Notes under the pieces: model-generated
Told to the model about the DNA's origin: nothing
Seen by the model: only the letters and a program-made list of their open reading frames with translations
The model's database searches: none
Translations under genes and position numbers: made by a program
Shown: positions 11,333 through 39,643 of the stretch, one piece after another
How the letters are laid out: every line of letters begins with the position of its first letter
Position numbering within the stretch: position 1 is the stretch's first letter
Origin: Nanohaloarchaea archaeon B1-Br10_U2g1
Lineage (GTDB): Archaea; Nanohalarchaeota; Nanosalinia; Nanosalinales; Nanosalinaceae
Direction of reading: 5' to 3'
Assembly: GCA_001563875.1 (NCBI GenBank)
Contig: LKMN01000002.1
Location: 1-64,000 of the forward strand
Length of the DNA: 64,000 bases

Positions 11333-12169
11333 TCACTCTTCCATATAGACAGTTCTGATAGGATAAGGAATGTCTATGCCTTCTCTATCAAACTTCTCTT
11401 TAACCAGCTGTGTTACCTCGGAAGAGGCCTTTACAACGCTTGCCCTACCGGTATCGGTCCATCCTCTAAGCCTTAAGTCTACGGATGAACCTCCGAGTTC
11501 GTCTGTCAGTATCTGAGGCTCGGGCTCGGACTCAACCGTTTCAGCATCATCAAGTGTCTCCCTTGCAAGATCTCTAGCTTTCTGTATATTGTCGTCGTAA
11601 CTTATTCCTACCACCACATCAAATCTTCTTTTCTCGTAGCCTGTGTTGTTAACAACAGTTTCGTTGTACAGTTTGGAGTTAGGAACAATGACCTTTCTAC
11701 CGTCAAAAGTCTTTATATCGGTAGCTCTAACCCTTATATCCTCTACAGTACCTGCTTCATCTTCTGCGGCTATCTGATCTCCTATCTTGAAAGGACGGTT
11801 TATCATTATCATAAGTCCCGAGATAAAGTTAGCAATCATTTCTCTAAGCGCAAAAGATATACCTAAGCCTATAAGACCTACAGCTGTACCTAAGGCTGAC
11901 GGAGGGACTCCGAAAACTCCTAAAATCACTATGAAAGCTACTGAATATATTAAGTATGAAGTAAGTTTTTTAGCTGTCGCTGAAGCGTGCTTTGTCCCAT
12001 TGCTATGCTCTATTGATCTTTCAACTATCTTGTTTGAAGCTCTATCCACTACCAGCGCAAGAGCTAAAACAACTGCAGCCCAAGCTACCGCTTGTAAAGT
12101 TATATCAGGCGGAAGAAGCTGTGCTACATCCTCCGATACTAGCTCTCCTGTAGAAGCAATCGAATCCAT
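11333..12169 (-). CDS. mscS: Small-conductance mechanosensitive channel (MscS family)
   Basis: GISFALREMIANFISG, RPFKIGD, GTVEDI, DGRKVIVPNS, GIDIPYP. Confidence 0.93.
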   Translation of the reverse strand: MDSIASTGELVSEDVAQLLPPDITLQAVAWAAVVLALALVVDRASNKIVERSIEHSNGTKHASATAKKLTSYLIYSVAFIVILGVFGVPPSALGTAVGLIGLGISFALREMIANFISGLMIMINRPFKIGDQIAAEDEAGTVEDIRVRATDIKTFDGRKVIVPNSKLYNETVVNNTGYEKRRFDVVVGISYDDNIQKARDLARETLDDAETVESEPEPQILTDELGGSSVDLRLRGWTDTGRASVVKASSEVTQLVKEKFDREGIDIPYPIRTVYMEE

Positions 12170-32194: not shown

Positions 32195-33643
32195 CTATTC
32201 AGAGTCTTTGAACAGCTCGCTATTAAATATTGCCAGAAGCGGTATCATCTCAAGTCTTCCCGCAATCATGACTATAATCCATGTAAACTTGGTGACAGCG
32301 GAGAGATCAACCATTTCACTACCCTCCATGTAGACCGGTCCCATGTTCCCTGCCGCGGAAACCGTCCCTGACAACGCCGCCATAAGATTTGTGCCCTCGG
32401 CGTAAAGCACGATAAGCGTTCCTAAGAAGATTATGGATACCCAGCTGAAGAACAGTACTGAGATCGTTCTTATCATAGAGCTGTCCAGTATCTCTCCGTC
32501 TATCTTCACCTCGTTAATAGCCGACTTAGGAAGCTTGTATGATCTCAAATGTGTTCTGAGAAGCTCTATCATAGCTTTCAAACGGAAAATCTTGAAACCT
32601 CCTGAAGTCGATCCAAGAGAGCCTCCTACAAACATTACGCCTATGAATGCTGCCTGTAAGCCAACTGTAAGCGATGTAAGTGTTATAGTTGAGTGTCCTG
32701 TTGAGGAAACCACTGCTGCAGACGTGAAAACTCCATCAAAAACCGCTCTCTCCGGTGTAAAGCCCTGACGAATCAGCTCAAAACAGGTAAGCACAGACAT
32801 AACTAGGAAAACCTTGAAGTAGAGCTTGAACTCTGCGCTTCTAAGGAATGATCCGTAATCCGTTCTAAGGAACCTGTAAAGAAGTACGAAGTTAACACCT
32901 CCCAGAAACATTAAGAGAATTGTAGCAGCTTCTATAGGAGTAGAGTTGAATCCTGCTATGCTTTCACCCATTGTAGAAAACCCTCCTGTCGAAATTCCGG
33001 AGAAAGAATGTAGAACAGAATCGAATGCCGGCATACCAAGCAGCACGTAGATACCTGCAAACAAGGCAGTTATGAAACCGTAAACTCTCCATAAGTCAGC
33101 TATGGATTTTGTCAGAGAAGGTCTTATAGAACCTGCATCTGTTTTATGGGACTCGGCAGAGTAAAGACTTCTTGTTGCAGCACCAGACTCTCTAATAACC
33201 ACTATGAAGAATGTTAGTATCCCTAAACCTCCTATCCACTGCATGAAAGATCTCCAGAAAAGTATTGAACTTGGTAAGGTCTCTGGTGCTAAAACTATAG
33301 ATATTCCTGTAGTTGTGAGACCGGCTGTAGCCTCAAAGACCGCATCTATTATATTTAAGTGTGTTAGAAATGGTATTGCTCCGAATACAACCGCAAGCAC
33401 CCATCCAAGAACCGTGGCAAACATCGCCTCGGATATATCCGGATTTCTAGAGCTTTCACCCTGTTTACCAGACATATAGATTGAATATCCCAGCACTAAA
33501 GAGGAGACGGAGGCAACTATAAATCCCGAGATCTGAGCCAGACTTTCTCCATAGTAAACACCGACTATTATTGGCAGAGCTACTAAAACAGCGAAAATCT
33601 GGAGGAAAGCACCTACAATCCTCAGAATTACCGAGCTCCTCAT
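32195..33643 (-). CDS. trkH: Trk K+ uptake membrane subunit
   Basis: Pore loops TTTG, STGGFS, SSTG, GNMGP; QWIGGLG; GSTSGG; GRLE. Confidence 0.93.
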   Translation of the reverse strand: MRSSVILRIVGAFLQIFAVLVALPIIVGVYYGESLAQISGFIVASVSSLVLGYSIYMSGKQGESSRNPDISEAMFATVLGWVLAVVFGAIPFLTHLNIIDAVFEATAGLTTTGISIVLAPETLPSSILFWRSFMQWIGGLGILTFFIVVIRESGAATRSLYSAESHKTDAGSIRPSLTKSIADLWRVYGFITALFAGIYVLLGMPAFDSVLHSFSGISTGGFSTMGESIAGFNSTPIEAATILLMFLGGVNFVLLYRFLRTDYGSFLRSAEFKLYFKVFLVMSVLTCFELIRQGFTPERAVFDGVFTSAAVVSSTGHSTITLTSLTVGLQAAFIGVMFVGGSLGSTSGGFKIFRLKAMIELLRTHLRSYKLPKSAINEVKIDGEILDSSMIRTISVLFFSWVSIIFLGTLIVLYAEGTNLMAALSGTVSAAGNMGPVYMEGSEMVDLSAVTKFTWIIVMIAGRLEMIPLLAIFNSELFKDSE

Positions 33644-33686
33644 AACTACGGCTTAGAATTTCTCTGAATAAAAAGGGTGTTCGAGA

Positions 33687-33704
33687 CGAAAGATGTTTAT
33701 AAAG
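33687..33704 (+). promoter_or_regulatory. BRE/TATA promoter of rps6e-eif2g
   Basis: CGAAAGATG followed by TTTATAAAG (33696-33704). The same TTTATAAAG occurs upstream of rps3ae and rpl18e. Confidence 0.6.
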
Positions 33705-33766
33705 TTTGTATACGCATCTCCGAACTGCTCGGAACGAAAACTGACTGAGCAAAGGTGAAACTAATA

Positions 33767-34138
33767 ATGAAGATTACAGTAGGAGATACAGACGGTAAAA
33801 CACACCAAATCGAACTAGAAGAAAGCTCAAAAGTAGTTGGAAAGAAGATTGGAGACAGCTTTGAAGGAGGAATAGTAGGCTTAGACGGCTACAAACTTGA
33901 GATAACCGGTGGAAGCGACAAACAAGGGTTCCCTATGAGAGAAAGTATCGAAGGAACAGGTAGAAGAAGTATACTACTCAAAAAAGGATCCGGAATAGAC
34001 GAGGAAGAAAACGTTAGAAAGAGAAAAACCGTTAGAGGAAACACAGTCTCCGACGAAATAGAACAGCTAAACACCAAAGTTGTAGAAGAAGGAAATGAAT
34101 CTGTAGAAGATCTTCTATCAGAAGAGGAAGAGGAGTAA
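33767..34138 (+). CDS. rps6e: 30S ribosomal protein S6e (eS6)
   Basis: LEITGGSDKQGFPMR, RKRKTVRGN. ATG 33767 follows GGTGA; the track's 33755 start lies within that motif. Confidence 0.95.
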   Translation: MKITVGDTDGKTHQIELEESSKVVGKKIGDSFEGGIVGLDGYKLEITGGSDKQGFPMRESIEGTGRRSILLKKGSGIDEEENVRKRKTVRGNTVSDEIEQLNTKVVEEGNESVEDLLSEEEEE

Positions 34139-34176
34139 AAACCTTTTCAACCCTGTAAAAAGGAGTTAAAACTATA

Positions 34177-35364
34177 ATGACTGAGATACCTGAGGCCAAC
34201 ATCGGACTAGTAGGACACGTCGACCACGGAAAAACAACTTTAACGAACGCATTATCCGGTAAATGGACCGACGAACACTCTGAAGAACTGAAAAGAGGCA
34301 TCACCATAAGACTAGGTTACGCCGATATAACCTATTACAGAGATAGTGACGGAAACCTCAACGTAAAAGAAGAAGGTGACGCCGAGAGAACTATTTCTCT
34401 GGTAGACGCTCCAGGACACGAAACACTGATGGCCAACGTGCTTTCAGGAGCAGCAATAATGGACGGAGCAATACTTCTAGTCGCTGCAGATGAAGAGTGT
34501 CCTCAACCTCAGACAAGAGAGCATTTAGCGGCTCTAAATATTGCAGGAGTTGAGAATATAGTAGTTGTACAGAACAAGATCGATAAAGTTTCTAAAGAAG
34601 AAGCTAAAGACAATTACAGACAGATAAAAGAGTTCTTGAAAGGTTCTGTTGCCGAAGACGCTCCTATAGTACCTATATCAGCACAACAGGAGATTAACAT
34701 CGATGCTCTTCTGGAAGCTGTAGATGAAGAGATATCTACACCAGACAGAGATAGAGATGCGGACCCGAAGATGTTGTTAGCGCGTTCATTCGATATAAAC
34801 AAGCCCGGAACTAAGACAGAAGATCTGAACGGCGGCGTAATCGGCGGAAGCCTTGTTAAAGGAGAGTTAGAAGTAGGAGATAAAATTGAGGTAAGGCCCG
34901 GAGTACGTATCGGCGGAAAATGGAAGCCTGTTAAGACAAAGGTAAGAAGTATACTACAAGGAGGAAAACCAGTAGAGAAAGGAAGTCCAGGGGGATTACT
35001 GGCTGTAGAGACAGAACTGGATCCTGCTCTGGCTAAGTCCGATGGATTATCTGGAAACGTTTTGGGCGTTGAAGACAAGCTTCCTGATACTTTAGATGAG
35101 ATAGAGGTTGAGGTAGAGCTTATGGAGAGACTTGTTGGTTCAGAAGACGAGAAGGAGATTGAGAATATCAAGAAGAAAGAACCTTTGATGCTTAACGTTG
35201 GAACAGGTAAGTCCGCAGGGATAGTAACAGGTCTAGGTAAAACCGTTGAACTCAACCTTAAAGCACCCGTCTGTGCCGAGGAAGGAGACCGAATCGCGAT
35301 TTCGAGGCAGATAGGCTCTAGATGGAGGCTTATTGGCCACGGCAAAATTGTGTCTACACAGTAG
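34177..35364 (+). CDS. eif2g: Translation initiation factor 2 gamma subunit (aIF2-gamma)
   Basis: GHVDHGKT, EELKRGITIRLGYA, DAPGHE, PQPQTREH, QNKID, RSFDINKPG, RWRLIG. Confidence 0.97.
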   Translation: MTEIPEANIGLVGHVDHGKTTLTNALSGKWTDEHSEELKRGITIRLGYADITYYRDSDGNLNVKEEGDAERTISLVDAPGHETLMANVLSGAAIMDGAILLVAADEECPQPQTREHLAALNIAGVENIVVVQNKIDKVSKEEAKDNYRQIKEFLKGSVAEDAPIVPISAQQEINIDALLEAVDEEISTPDRDRDADPKMLLARSFDINKPGTKTEDLNGGVIGGSLVKGELEVGDKIEVRPGVRIGGKWKPVKTKVRSILQGGKPVEKGSPGGLLAVETELDPALAKSDGLSGNVLGVEDKLPDTLDEIEVEVELMERLVGSEDEKEIENIKKKEPLMLNVGTGKSAGIVTGLGKTVELNLKAPVCAEEGDRIAISRQIGSRWRLIGHGKIVSTQ

Positions 35365-35395: not shown

Positions 35396-36961
35396 ATGAT
35401 GGTTATGGTAGACTTTCTAACTCCTTTAATTGATTTTATAAGCAGAGATCAAGCCACGGTACAAATACTAGTTACTCTTTCAATTTTGGTTCTAGGCCAT
35501 CTACTCACGAAATTTGTTAAGACGGTCGGTAGAAGGGTCTGGGTAGCAAGAGAAGGCATCACAAAAAAGGAGTTAAGGAGAAGACAGGAAGGACTGAAAT
35601 ATGTAGGGTATATCATAGATGCATCCGCCATATCAGTAGCTCTACTTTACCTAAATACAGGCATAACAGGTTCAGTAGTTGAGCAGGCAGCCGAGTTTGC
35701 ACCAAACCTGCTTTCAGCGATGCTTATCGCAGTCCTTGGAATACTAACGATACAGATAGTTACACGTGCTGGAGAGAACTTCCTAAGAACGATGGGAGTT
35801 CAAAACTACTTCAGAGAGTTAGGAGTCTCCTACAACGGAATTAGAATTATAACAGGTTTCTTCAAGGCTTTCCTATACCTACTGCTTCTCCAAGTGGCGC
35901 TAGACCAGCTTGGGGTAGGAGACAGCTTTGTAAGAGAACTTATTACAGCCTCATCATGGGCAGCAGCGTTCCTAGTAGCAGGACTACTCATATACGGTTT
36001 TAAAGATCTTATAGCAAACTTCGCAGCAGGTATCTACCTAAAGAGTTCAAGACTAGTCAAACCTGGAGAGAAAGTGTATCTTGAGGAAGATTCTGGTGAG
36101 ATACGTAGCGTAGATCTTTTCAGCACCGAAATAGGTACCGGAGAAGGATACAATCTTGTGACACAGAACAAGAACATTATGAATGCAGATCTCAAGTTCA
36201 AGAGAACCAAAGGAGATCTAAACACCTTAGAAGATATCAAGAGATACTTCACAGCCCAAGATCCTTCTTACTGCGGTCCTGCATCCGCAGAGATGGCGTT
36301 AAACATCTTCGGATACCGTTTCAACCAGCAGGAGATAGGAGATATGGCCGGTACAGAGAAAGGGGTTGGAACAATGCCGGACGAATTAATAGAGGTTGTA
36401 GAGAACTTGACTGACGAAGAAGTTAGAGGTGCTTACGTAGAGTACGACAAGATAACGGATCTATCAGACGAGTTCAAGACCTGGTTTAACGACGGAGCTC
36501 TAATAATACCTAACTTTGCGAAGCCGGTACTTTTCCCTCAGGCAGATACAGCGCATTACAGCCTATGTGTGGCCGTAGAAGGAGATGAGCTACTGGTAGT
36601 TGATCCTAGCGCCAACACTGTTTCAGGCGGGGTATACTACGCGGACAGCTCGGAGATGCTGGAAGCTATGGGAGAGTTCGAAGGCCGTACCAGAGGATAT
36701 ATCGTACTGGCTCCAGAGGATACAACCGCGTACTGGAGAATCAAAGAGGACCTTATTTACTCGGACGAGAACCTGTACGACCATATAAATAAGAACATGG
36801 AGCTTCAGCTCCGTAGAATCCTGAGACAGGGCAGAATACTGAAGAATGTTCTACCGGAAGATCTTCAGGACTACATAGAGAAGTGGGAGAAGGATGAAAA
36901 AGTTGGAAGGGTATGGAAGCCTGACGGAGGGGAAGAAGATGAAGACACTGATACTAGGTAA
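35396..36961 (+). CDS. MscS-family channel fused to a papain-like (C39/phytochelatin-synthase-like) cysteine peptidase domain
   Basis: Multiple TMs, then the MscS core (YGFKDLIANFAAGIYL, VKPGEKV, GEIRSVDLFSTEI), then QDPSYCGPAS (Cys293), AHYS (His387), VVDP (Asp403). Confidence 0.8.
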   Translation: MMVMVDFLTPLIDFISRDQATVQILVTLSILVLGHLLTKFVKTVGRRVWVAREGITKKELRRRQEGLKYVGYIIDASAISVALLYLNTGITGSVVEQAAEFAPNLLSAMLIAVLGILTIQIVTRAGENFLRTMGVQNYFRELGVSYNGIRIITGFFKAFLYLLLLQVALDQLGVGDSFVRELITASSWAAAFLVAGLLIYGFKDLIANFAAGIYLKSSRLVKPGEKVYLEEDSGEIRSVDLFSTEIGTGEGYNLVTQNKNIMNADLKFKRTKGDLNTLEDIKRYFTAQDPSYCGPASAEMALNIFGYRFNQQEIGDMAGTEKGVGTMPDELIEVVENLTDEEVRGAYVEYDKITDLSDEFKTWFNDGALIIPNFAKPVLFPQADTAHYSLCVAVEGDELLVVDPSANTVSGGVYYADSSEMLEAMGEFEGRTRGYIVLAPEDTTAYWRIKEDLIYSDENLYDHINKNMELQLRRILRQGRILKNVLPEDLQDYIEKWEKDEKVGRVWKPDGGEEDEDTDTR

Positions 36962-37748
36962 AGACTTCGAGACAGAGATGTTTGAGGAACACTTTGAGGA
37001 GGTAGAGGAAAAATCTCTCGCAGACACCATGATAACTATGAACGGTGGCAGCGAGGTCTTGATAAACGGAGAAGATATAGAGACCTGGGACGCTGTCTAT
37101 ATCCAGCCAGAGTCAAAGGCTGTACAGTTCTCAAGAGTCTTGATGGAGACACTTTCTCTCAAAGAGATACACTGTAATCTGAATACCTCTGTATTCATAC
37201 CTGTAAAAAAGCCTTACCTACTACAGGTACTTTCAGAAAAAGAGGTTAAAACCCCTGTTCAGACAAGTATCTCGACAGAGAAAGGTCTCACCGAGATCGA
37301 AAAAGAGGTTGAGTTCCCGGTTGTAACTAAAAAATACAGGAATCTAGATCTTGAGGAGACAAAGATATTTGATAATTTTGAGAATCTTAAGAAGTTCTGT
37401 GAAAATACCGAACACGGAGAAAGCTTTGTAGTAATCCAAGAGTATTCCGAAGAAGATGTTTTCGATATACTGTATATAGACGGAGATATTATCTCTCTAA
37501 AGCTAGAGGATAATCCTTGGAGCTCCGAAGAAGTAGTAACCGGAAAGTACCACAGTCTTTCAGACAAGCAGAAAGAGGTTGTAAAAGATGCTGTCTCAGC
37601 TATAGGCCTTAAGATATGTAGTTTAAGATTAAACGGTACAGAGGTCATGGATGTTAAAAACGATCCTCAGCTCGAAAGATTCAGAGAAGAGAGCGGTAAA
37701 AACGTTTATGGAAGAGTTGCATCAATGTTAGAAGGTGATCAAGATTAA
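36939..37748 (+). CDS. Degenerate RimK/LysX-like ATP-grasp protein
   Basis: DAVYI, KPYLLQVL, VEFPVVTK and VIQEY align with RimK, but the GxxG loop, RxN and E-x-N motifs are absent. ATG 36939 follows GGAGG. Confidence 0.7.
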   Translation: MKTLILGKDFETEMFEEHFEEVEEKSLADTMITMNGGSEVLINGEDIETWDAVYIQPESKAVQFSRVLMETLSLKEIHCNLNTSVFIPVKKPYLLQVLSEKEVKTPVQTSISTEKGLTEIEKEVEFPVVTKKYRNLDLEETKIFDNFENLKKFCENTEHGESFVVIQEYSEEDVFDILYIDGDIISLKLEDNPWSSEEVVTGKYHSLSDKQKEVVKDAVSAIGLKICSLRLNGTEVMDVKNDPQLERFREESGKNVYGRVASMLEGDQD

Positions 37749-38619
37749 GTGTGCAGTAATATACGGAAGCAAGTCAGCACAACACCAGTACTTCATAGAG
37801 AAAGGTAAAGAGTACTTCGACAAAGTTCTCGGCGTTCCTCTAGAAGGTGTGAGAACGGTTTATGATGGAGATGGCGCTCATTTAATGTACAAGAACACCG
37901 ATCTATGTGAGTTCGATGCCGTATACCTAAGGCTTCTAGGAAACGACTTGATGTACGGCGAACATCTACCTGAAATACTGGATGAGAACAATGTATACAC
38001 CCAGCTTGAATCGGAAGCTCTAGCAATAGCCTCTAACAAGTTCCATATGATGAAGGTCCTAGGAGAGTCAGGTCTGCCTGTCCCCGATTCAATCTACACT
38101 CTTTCAACAGAAGAAACCGAAAGAGCAGGAGAAACATTAGGATACCCCAACATAATCAAGATAATATCAGGTTATGGAGGGAAAGGAGTAATCAAAGCAA
38201 ACTCTGAATCCGATATAGGACCCATAACTGATGCTTTAACACTTTTCGAACAGGAAATCTGTGTACAGGAGTATATTGACAATCCTGGCGAAGACATACG
38301 TATAACGGTAGTAGGAGACGAAACATTCGCATACAAAAGGGTTGGAGGAGAAGAAGAGTTCCGTTCAAATATATCTGCAGGAGGCAACAGAGAATCCTTT
38401 GAACCTTCTGAAGAAATGAAAGAATCTGCCATAAACGCTGCAAGACTCTGCGGCCTGGACATCGCAGGAATAGACATAATTGAGGATGAGAAAACCGGCG
38501 AAATTTATCTTGGAGAGGTAAACGCTTCGCCCGGCGTCGAAGGAACAGAAGAAGTTTTGGAAGTTGATATGGCCAAAAAGATAATGGCTTTTATCAAAAA
38601 GAAGGCCGCGGAGCGGTAA
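37735..38619 (+). CDS. RimK/LysX-family ATP-grasp peptide (glutamate) ligase
   Basis: SNKF, IIKIISGYGGKGV, QEYID, EDIRITVVG, FRSNISAGG, GIDII, EVNASPG. Confidence 0.92.
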   Translation: MIKIKCAVIYGSKSAQHQYFIEKGKEYFDKVLGVPLEGVRTVYDGDGAHLMYKNTDLCEFDAVYLRLLGNDLMYGEHLPEILDENNVYTQLESEALAIASNKFHMMKVLGESGLPVPDSIYTLSTEETERAGETLGYPNIIKIISGYGGKGVIKANSESDIGPITDALTLFEQEICVQEYIDNPGEDIRITVVGDETFAYKRVGGEEEFRSNISAGGNRESFEPSEEMKESAINAARLCGLDIAGIDIIEDEKTGEIYLGEVNASPGVEGTEEVLEVDMAKKIMAFIKKKAAER

Positions 38620-39643
38620 ACTCCTCAAAGCTTTGAGCCAGTATCTCTTTAGCCTCAGTCATCTCCTCCTCTGAGAAAGCGTTCAAAGCCGGAACCCCTA
38701 CATAATCTTCTACAGTATCTTTCCCAACGGTCGTATCAGTAATCGGTCCTGACATAAACGAGAGCTCGTAATCCAGATCAGTTAAAACCTTTTTTAGGCC
38801 GTATGCTCCCATAACATCTAAGCTTACACCACAAATACTGAATATTGAGTTCTTTACATCTAGATCTCTTAGAACTTCTTGGACATGGTAGTTACTGATC
38901 AGCCCTGCACCAAACTCTATAACTATGAAGTCAAGATCTTCGTTCCAAGCATGGTTGATCAAGCCTTTAGCAGAGGATATAACTATCTCAGGATCATCTA
39001 CAGTTGAAGGCAGTCCTGCATCAACAAAATCCAGTGATATCTCTGAACCGGATTCAAACATGCTTACTCGGTCTCTTTCTCTTGCGGAACCAGTAAGTTT
39101 CAAGGAACCAACTTCATACTCCTCTGAAAGGTTTTCAATTATCTTCGTAGCCAGTGTTGTCTTTCCTGCATCCATCCTGGTCGAGACAACGCCCACCAGT
39201 CTTGGCTCTCCTTCAATCTCTTCAACTCTTTCAATACCATAATCTTTCATGTTCAAGATCTTTTCGTCCTGTGAGACGTATCCAAGAAACTCTGCCTCAC
39301 ATGGCTCTCCTAAATTCTTTGCAGCGCTTAAACAGTCTCCGAAAACGCCTCCCGAGCCTATGAAATCTATTCGATCGCCTTCACTGACTTCATCAGGCAC
39401 TTCTCCAATATATCCTTTGACTCCTGCCCGGTTTCCAAACGTTCCAAGGACTATATCTCCCTCTTCAATCTCTACGAGCTCTCCTCCAGGGAGATCCAGT
39501 TCGTTGTAGTCGCCTTTTTTCTCTGTTATCTTTACTGCTACAACATCCCCTACCTGAGGTCTATGTCCGCTTTCAACTATCTCTGAACTATCTGTTATCT
39601 CTATCCTTTTCAGGCACGAGGCCTTGTAATCATGTCTAACCAT
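38594..39643 (-). CDS. DUF1611-like P-loop NTPase
   Basis: N-terminal beta domain (GDVVAV, GNR), Walker A STRMDAGKTT, KLTG, DFVDAGLPST, VIEFGAG. Confidence 0.65.
   Translation of the reverse strand: MVRHDYKASCLKRIEITDSSEIVESGHRPQVGDVVAVKITEKKGDYNELDLPGGELVEIEEGDIVLGTFGNRAGVKGYIGEVPDEVSEGDRIDFIGSGGVFGDCLSAAKNLGEPCEAEFLGYVSQDEKILNMKDYGIERVEEIEGEPRLVGVVSTRMDAGKTTLATKIIENLSEEYEVGSLKLTGSARERDRVSMFESGSEISLDFVDAGLPSTVDDPEIVISSAKGLINHAWNEDLDFIVIEFGAGLISNYHVQEVLRDLDVKNSIFSICGVSLDVMGAYGLKKVLTDLDYELSFMSGPITDTTVGKDTVEDYVGVPALNAFSEEEMTEAKEILAQSFEEFTAPRPSF

Follow-up and report, generated by a model that had tools for sequence, protein, structure and literature searches.

In a stretch of 64,000 nucleotides (nt) from Nanohaloarchaea archaeon B1-Br10_U2g1 (contig LKMN01000002.1, positions 1 to 64,000 of the forward strand), referred to below as the window, we have analysed a cassette of four genes, P1 to P4, the first three of which form a conserved unit. 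P1 is predicted to be an MscS-type channel fused to a C39-like papain-fold domain, P2 to be a catalytically dead ATP-grasp protein and P3 an intact RimK-family ATP-grasp ligase; P4, which converges on P3, appears to be a lineage-specific P-loop accessory. The best reading of the whole, to which we give a probability of about 0.4, is a membrane-docked cycle in which glutamyl peptides would be made and hydrolysed. That genomes of about 0.7-1.3 Mb, which have shed most of their biosynthesis, still keep the trio suggests that it is probably indispensable to these symbiotic archaea.

The conserved core: a channel fusion and two ATP-grasp proteins

The first three genes behave as one unit. Among 41 genomes, i.e. 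the source genome (709,831 bases, 96.75% complete) and 40 relatives, the P1 fusion was found in 37, and P2 and P3 each in 38, where they are always adjacent and in the same order. All three genes are missing from three genomes (G025, 61% complete; G028, 93%; and G033, 88%), and one other genome (G039) has P2-P3-P4 with no P1, these genes lying at the end of a contig of 5152 nt. At the level of the phylum, P1 is present in 64 of 70 genomes and in 27 of the 28 high-quality ones. Out of 63 loci with a P1 match (62 public ones and the window), 56 had at least 1.9 kb of downstream sequence and could be evaluated; P2 and then P3 follow P1 in 55 of them, the exception being L081, and so constant an order takes the arrangement far beyond chance. 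A second lineage of archaea, which is not halophilic, has the trio too, in different genomic surroundings (L085 and L086, with a P1 identity of 33-34%). There, a full-length P1 occurs in 13 of 41 genomes, and P1-P2-P3 are together in seven of eight loci, the flank of the eighth being too short; the proteins of this lineage are Lys-rich and non-acidic. The sequence-only reading of the window, which had singled out the locus, proposed a system of four linked genes. This proved right for the first three, whose linkage and order are kept across the phylum and in the second lineage, and wrong for P4, which is present in 9 of the 41 genomes only and lies outside the conserved core.

In the 20 nanohaloarchaeal loci that were fetched, P1 always comes directly after aIF2gamma, and the cassette always sits between the S6e-aIF2gamma and the RpoE'/Spt4/S24e genes (20/20 in both cases); in the window these five genes, as well as Kae1, were named from their translations by eye, without a family scan. 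An intact trio occurs in a different neighbourhood at L065-L067, where EF-1alpha/EF-2/S7/S12-like genes, again read from translations, adjoin it. A Cdc123-like link between P2 and aIF2gamma was considered and dropped, since L065-L067, L085 and L086 have the trio in other places. Some public records with a cassette of nanohaloarchaeal type bear the titles Colwellia polaris, uncultured Methanosarcinales or Aenigmatarchaeota (L070, L081, L065-L067), probably as a result of binning or labelling errors.

Judged by its profile matches, P1 is made of the transmembrane (TM) core and the beta-domain of MscS, followed by a C39-like papain-fold domain in place of the usual C-terminal MscS domain. The conserved TM helix of MscS (PF05552) scores 29.8 bits against a Pfam cut-off of 22, and the beta-domain (PF00924) 21.8 bits against 20.2. 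A profile of 20 P1 orthologues, among which the pore-helix motif is nearly invariant, matches solved MscS chains with an E of 3.9e-11, and the match stops near residue 264. The C-terminal alpha/beta cage domain of MscS (PF21082), present in the other MscS of the genome (E 3.6e-11), gave no Pfam match in P1. The Peptidase_C39_2 family (PF13529) matches residues 288-404 with 29.4 bits (cut-off 24), while the bacteriocin-processing C39 family (PF03412) stays below its cut-off (16.8 bits against 22). The Atlas clusters nearest to residues 270-521 are all Peptidase_C39/C39_2 (best score 0.91), and Cys293, His387 and Asp403 are in place, so that the Cys-His-Asp papain-fold assignment made at the outset is borne out.

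Hydropathy and a positively charged loop (residues 41-68, net +7) point to an N-out protein with about five TM segments. This topology puts the peptidase-like domain in the cytoplasm, together with the ligases. The C-terminal region which follows contains many invariant Trp/Arg/Tyr/Gly columns among the 20 orthologues; the acidic tail at its end is not conserved, and is Lys-rich in the second lineage. A free-standing form of the C-terminal half of P1 was also looked for, and rejected: all 13 short matches turned out to be the same fusion, cut at a contig end or recorded as 'partial'.

P2 gave no Pfam match. Its kinship with P3 comes from the comparison of orthologue profiles, which hhalign matches over 277 columns with 99.8% probability and an E of 2.1e-30. 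None of the nine P2 sequences aligned retains the Gly-rich loop, either of the catalytic Arg motifs or the Asp/Glu/Asn metal ligands, and only K106 and G238 are invariant among 23 P2 orthologues. By these criteria P2 is a full-length ATP-grasp homologue stripped of every catalytic motif, and is predicted to be a catalytically dead pseudo-enzyme.

P3, on the same kind of evidence, is an intact RimK-family ATP-grasp ligase. It matches RimK (PF08443) with an E of 7.5e-36 and TIGR00768 with 155.8 bits (cut-off 143.4), and its best solved relatives are the RimK proteins of E. coli (E 3.9e-31) and Pseudomonas. None of the 23 orthologues compared departs from P3 at K102, K142, G146/148/149/151, R189, R202, R210, N212, D247, E261 or N263, the positions of the ATP-binding Lys, the Gly loop, the Arg/Asn motif and the Mg ligands. 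The pairing of a degenerate with an intact ATP-grasp protein, noticed from the sequence alone, is therefore confirmed. Against the narrower RimK equivalog PRK10446 (S6--L-glutamate ligase), P3 scores 124.7 bits, below the cut-off of 331, and it is below the cut-offs of the MptN, LysX and CofF equivalogs too. In a tree of P3, the window's protein groups with P4-type loci of another family, away from most of its own, and the P1 and P3 trees, both quick ones, disagree on the position of locus L062. The block formed by P2, P3 and the accessory gene may have been exchanged as a module relative to P1.

The presence of a C39-like domain next to ATP-grasp proteins could also suggest a unit for the maturation and export of a ribosomal peptide, similar to the peptidase-containing ABC exporters: the ATP-grasp proteins would modify a precursor, the C39 domain would cut off its leader and the channel would export the product. 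C39 domains are best known as cytoplasmic leader peptidases fused to exporters, and P3 has a weak match to the graspetide-maturase model TIGR04187 (E 6.9e-6). ATP-grasp ligases are reported to mature graspetides (PMC8939145). However, the RimK score of P3 is far better (E 1.4e-45), and a precursor gene would find no space in the cassette, where the genes overlap and the gaps on either side are of 31 nt ahead of P1 and 63 nt beyond P4. Moreover, the catalytic dyad is lost in 23 of 55 P1 orthologues (see below), and we know of no case of peptide export by an MscS channel. We find such a unit hardly credible.

The accessory slot, the P1 dyad and the P4 family

Between P3 and the gene for a PIN protein lies a slot whose content changes with the lineage. 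In the nine genomes that have it, P4 occupies this place and always converges on P3. In other lineages, the slot holds GCS2 carboxylate-amine ligases (42.5 bits vs 21), one to three extra ATP-grasp proteins with YheCD-, TTL- or RimK-type matches, AstE/AspA-type deacylases (E 2.9e-20), or a protein of about 400 amino acids (aa) with an invariant HExxH, for whose profile MATCAP was the only match among solved structures (E 5.4e-8). AstE/AspA-like genes also accompany P4 in seven related loci. Being rich in amide ligases as well as in peptidases and deacylases, the slot fits a cycle in which peptide bonds would be made and broken.

What stands in the slot goes along with the state of P1. Among the 55 P1 orthologues, 32 keep the catalytic dyad, and in these Gln288 (the putative oxyanion residue), Cys293 and His387 are each found 32 times out of 32; Gln288 persists in 3 of the 23 without the dyad, and Asp403 is invariant in all 55. 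Both Cys293 and His387 are present in 16 of 16 P4 loci (a 17th has only a P1 fragment), in 11 of 11 GCS2 loci, and never in the 16 loci that have a MATCAP-like gene. On a quick maximum-likelihood tree of the 55 sequences, built with the catalytic columns removed, the dyad changed state at least five times. Five independent pairs could be compared: the MATCAP-like gene was opposite to the dyad in 3.9 pairs on average and never went the same way, and P4-or-GCS2 had the same direction as the dyad in 4.5 pairs and was never opposite to it. We read this swap as the functional replacement of one peptidase by another, in which case the P1 domain of the window would be a working peptidase, and the cassette would offer a natural experiment on the replacement of a papain-fold peptidase by one of MATCAP type. 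On the other hand, with the dyad lost in 23 of 55 orthologues, the conserved role of the C39-like domain cannot be hydrolysis alone. The peptide hydrolysis that had been ascribed to this domain is thus consistent with the residues of 32 orthologues and is not a universal property of the core.

One explanation for the upkeep of a domain deprived of its dyad could be that P1 is mainly a mechanosensitive channel. The papain-fold domain would then be a cage, or a sensor that tunes gating by binding the ligase product or the P2-P3 pair; catalysis by P1 would be dispensable, and P2 and P3 would regulate the channel. The domain, with Asp403, is indeed kept in all 23 orthologues without Gln/Cys/His and fills the position of the missing C-terminal MscS domain, and the C-terminal region of P1 is equally conserved with the dyad (mean pairwise identity 0.60) and without it (0.58). 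Furthermore, the membrane partner in the published rlo operon, to which we come back below, is reported to have an inactive papain-fold (transglutaminase) domain. This does not fit well with the behaviour of the C39-like domain itself, which is more conserved where the dyad is present (identity 0.62) than where it is absent (0.48), and in which Gln, Cys and His are kept without exception in the former group. The loss of the dyad tracks the gain of another peptidase, which argues that peptidase activity is needed. Pure scaffolds, as far as we know, do not normally hold a full catalytic set. A role of P1 as a channel and sensor only is, in our opinion, quite unlikely.

P4 has no family above cut-off, with sub-threshold MobB and NTPase (nucleoside triphosphatase) matches only, and does not match DUF1611 (PF07755) at E<=1. 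Its family counts 979 cluster representatives at E<=1e-3. The named matches of the family are all 'hypothetical', save one with a MobB-type label, and the best solved relative of the family profile is dethiobiotin synthetase (E 2e-5). Among 51 members, G160, K161, K182 and E243 are invariant, and weak matches to DUF1611_C were found in 15 (best 1.7e-5), to CbiA in 21 and to MobB in 23; the N-terminal domain of P4 has about 145 residues. From these matches, P4 is predicted to be a dethiobiotin-synthetase/CobQ-type P-loop protein, a lineage-specific accessory that is only distantly DUF1611-like. Of its initial description as a DUF1611-like NTPase, the remote likeness can be retained, and membership of the Pfam family cannot.

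More than a generic NTPase, P4 is probably an enzyme that modifies amino acids, since its bacterial relatives sit inside arginine-synthesis operons. An illustration is provided by 80 metagenome loci from the closer bacterial relatives, a count that covers this clade only: the gene just upstream is ArgG in 44 and the one just downstream is ArgC in 43, and ArgD, ArgF, ArgB, ArgH and ArgR are found nearby. ArgA, ArgJ and ArgE were not seen among the operon genes scanned at these loci. Fusions of family members with an M20 peptidase and with an amino-acid kinase also exist, and a search for arginine genes in the source genome gave 0 matches. The safest statement is that the family would act on glutamate- or ornithine-type amino-acid intermediates. 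As to the specific role of P4, an N-acylglutamate-forming step is an attractive guess, with which the activity of the DUF1611 protein DgcN reportedly fits; the published account gives dgcN only a key place in a pathway of D-acidic-amino-acid racemisation. The P4 family would also be a candidate for a missing arginine-synthesis step in Acidobacteriota and other bacteria.

One archaeal contig (L213, 1601-6730, of genome G070) has a P4-family gene in the company of genes for a thiamine pyrophosphate (TPP)-dependent decarboxylase, a phosphoenolpyruvate (PEP) mutase, an aldehyde dehydrogenase and an ornithine transcarbamylase (OTCase)-like carbamoyltransferase. This cluster looks like one for phosphonate metabolism.

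A putative glutamyl-peptide cycle and its counterparts

In the cycle that we propose, by analogy with the families concerned, P3 would use ATP to ligate L-glutamate, or an amino acid like it, to an acceptor with a free carboxylate; its family membership suggests short alpha-glutamyl peptides as the product. P2 would most likely be a structural or regulatory partner of P3, an adaptor to P1, or both. In P1, the Gln-Cys-His-Asp domain would sit on the cytoplasmic side of a pore of MscS type, at the place where canonical MscS has its cage domain. In the lineage of the window, this domain would be a live cysteine peptidase or transpeptidase which trims or cleaves the ligase product, a competence that we infer because of the strict conservation of the residues. 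The accessory slot would supply partner enzymes specific to each lineage. Here this would be P4, which probably makes or caps a glutamate-derived primer, e.g. N-acyl-Glu, given that its bacterial relatives sit in arginine operons without an N-acylglutamate-forming step. The product in the window would then resemble N-acylated glutamyl peptides such as N-acetylaspartylglutamate (NAAG) or N-acetylglutaminylglutamine amide (NAGGN). Finally, the channel part might vent small products or glutamate upon membrane stretch, or might only localise and regulate the enzymes; the coupling between channel and tension is the least supported step. MscCG, a relative of MscS, is a glutamate exporter.

A number of observations weigh against the glutamyl-peptide cycle. 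The P1 catalytic residues are lost from 23 of 55 orthologues, 32 of the 41 genomes lack P4, and none of the 80 bacterial homologues of P4 adjoins a RimK-like, GCS2 or MATCAP-like gene as detected with hidden Markov models (HMMs). In genome G070, the trio and the P4-family gene are on different contigs, the latter in the PEP-mutase/OTCase-like cluster mentioned above. These separate contexts of its relatives make both the chemistry of P4 and its tie to the trio uncertain. The pair tests on the dyad, with n=5, cannot reach p<0.05 (median p of 0.125 for the MATCAP-like gene and 0.0625 for P4-or-GCS2). We know of no example of glutamyl peptides passing through an MscS pore. Lastly, the second lineage that bears the trio is non-halophilic, which argues against an osmolyte role specific to hypersaline conditions; the role as K+ counter-anion, offered in the sequence-only reading, is weakened by the Lys-rich, non-acidic proteins of that lineage.

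What makes the proposed mechanism plausible is the existence of published analogues, namely RimK/RimB, rlo and the NAGGN and NAAG pathways. To the initial remark that no described system of this architecture was known, it must be added that analogues have been described. The RloABC operon of Pseudomonas aeruginosa (mBio 2025, PMC12239564) encodes a RimK-like ATP-grasp protein, a peptidase that acts on poly-Glu and a membrane protein whose domain belongs to the papain superfamily, and its phenotype is tolerance to hypo-osmotic stress. As in the cassette, there are three genes in one unit, and the stress is of the type that MscS channels answer. The membrane component differs, P1 being predicted to be an MscS-type channel with a cytoplasmic C39-like domain, the catalytic residues of which are intact in the window. 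The likeness is one of architecture only: the RloABC families, retropepsin included, gave no Pfam match in the four proteins of the window, and no sequence relationship to RloB was found. Together, the cassette and the rlo operon hint at a poly-alpha-glutamyl chemistry linked to osmotic stress across domains.

Two other pathways lead to a small N-blocked acidic dipeptide through N-acylation, RimK-like ligation and a peptidase or deacylase. One is the synthesis of NAGGN (Ngg/AsnO/PA3461), an osmoprotectant whose Ngg-dependent production involves an operon-encoded aminopeptidase. The other is the mammalian synthesis of NAAG (NAT8L, RIMKLA/B, ASPA), where the RimK-like RIMKLA/B make the dipeptide and ASPA is the deacylase. 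Unlike these, the cassette has no amidotransferase, its candidate for N-acylation, P4, would be a P-loop protein and not a GNAT, and the fusion to a channel is found in the cassette only. As for the channel, canonical E. coli MscS shares with P1 the pore helix and the beta-domain; P1 has the peptidase-like domain and a novel conserved C-terminal region instead of the C-terminal MscS domain. Literature searches aimed at the cassette returned no paper, a 2009 survey of amidoligases being outside their coverage, and a preprint on halophilic archaea reports that a different gene adjoins mscS2, in another group. An MscS channel fused to a peptidase fold and tied to RimK-type ligases is here met in the first case that we could find.

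The RimK/RimB system of Escherichia and Pseudomonas (with RimA) resembles the cassette in that an alpha-L-glutamate ligase is paired with a peptidase removing the added residues (PMC12239564), and it is the source of the RimK proteins that are the best solved relatives of P3. Its eraser is a soluble retropepsin, whereas that of the cassette would be a papain-fold domain fused to an MscS channel, and the obligatory dead ATP-grasp paralogue is peculiar to the cassette. A similar division of labour exists between tubulin tyrosine ligase, an ATP-grasp writer, and its erasers. The eukaryotic detyrosinases are either papain/transglutaminase-fold enzymes (the vasohibins) or MATCAP, and it is these two types that seem to interchange across lineages in the cassette.

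Such parallels lead to a different possibility, that of a reversible C-terminal amino-acid tagging of a protein, which P3 and the extra ATP-grasp proteins would write and the P1 domain or the MATCAP-like peptidase would erase, the channel anchoring or regulating the eraser. It is consistent with RimK being the closest solved relative of P3 and with the TTL/YheCD-type matches of the extra ligases in the slot. The metallopeptidase that replaces the dyad has as its only solved match MATCAP, a protein C-terminal carboxypeptidase, and the alternation of vasohibins and MATCAP in eukaryotes mirrors the swap seen here. The constant place of the nanohaloarchaeal cassette, amid the S6e-aIF2gamma and RpoE'/Spt4/S24e genes, would also agree with it. 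However, no target was found. To our knowledge, bS6, the target of RimK/RimB, does not exist in archaea, and the tubulin system is eukaryotic and cytoskeletal, with no tubulin-like target known for the cassette. S6e was rejected as a conserved target, since its poly-Glu tail is a halophile trait, common to Nanohaloarchaeota; in the second lineage, all the P1-bearing genomes (12/12) encode an S6e with a basic tail. The acidic tail of P1 was rejected as an acceptor for want of conservation. A LysW-type carrier pathway was rejected as well, the source genome having no LysW-like open reading frame (ORF) and 0 matches for arginine and lysine pathway genes. Also, the relatives of P4, GCS2 and AstE/AspA act on free amino-acid derivatives. 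We consider protein tagging unlikely, though it keeps real weight through the RimK and MATCAP parallels.

A bolder version of the glutamyl-peptide cycle would make P1 a mechano-enzyme. Seven papain-fold domains would form the cage of the pore, and tension, or the ionic state that tension reports, would directly gate the peptidase or transpeptidase; P3/P2 would make N-capped alpha-glutamyl peptides, with P4 for the capping, as an osmotically quiet store of glutamate. Upon stretch, these would be hydrolysed at the pore mouth and the products vented. In this strong form we hold the idea to be decidedly unlikely. If true, it would mean that a mechanosensitive channel is directly coupled to peptide metabolism, a link ancestral to two ultra-small archaeal lineages.

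Gene layout and surroundings

All four genes called in the sequence-only reading correspond to ORFs of the window (Table 1), and the tail-to-tail overlap it gave for P3 and P4 is exactly 26 nt in the ORF list. The overlap between P1 and P2 is 68 nt as called. The alignment of orthologue starts suggests that the true start of P2 is an internal Met at about position 36939, which would reduce this overlap to 23 nt. P2 and P3 overlap by 14 nt.

Table 1. Position of the cassette genes and of the parts of P1 in the window
Feature	Position	Strand	Description
P1	35396-36961	+	521 aa ORF
P1 residues 1-270	35396..36205	+	predicted N-out, about five TM segments, MscS pore helix, beta-domain
P1 residues 275-440	36218..36715	+	C39-like papain-fold domain, PF13529 match
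Gln288	36257-36259	+	putative oxyanion residue, P1 C39-like domain
Cys293	36272-36274	+	P1 C39-like domain
His387	36554-36556	+	P1 C39-like domain
Asp403	36602-36604	+	P1 C39-like domain
P1 residues 441-521	36716..36961	+	conserved C-terminal region without assigned fold, unconserved acidic tail, stop codon
P2	36894-37748	+	284 aa ORF
P3	37735-38619	+	294 aa ORF
P4	38594-39643	-	349 aa ORF, convergent with P3

Immediately upstream of the cassette, at 32195-35364, are the genes for the potassium transporter TrkH (-), S6e (+) and aIF2gamma (+), an order kept in most of the loci fetched. The downstream flank consists of genes for a PIN_9 protein, RpoE', Spt4, S24e and Kae1. S6e (33755-34138, +) ends in five Glu, and is one of 6 among the 717 long ORFs of the genome that end in at least three. 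The window contains a second MscS gene (11333-12169, -), which is canonical and has all three Pfam MscS domains.

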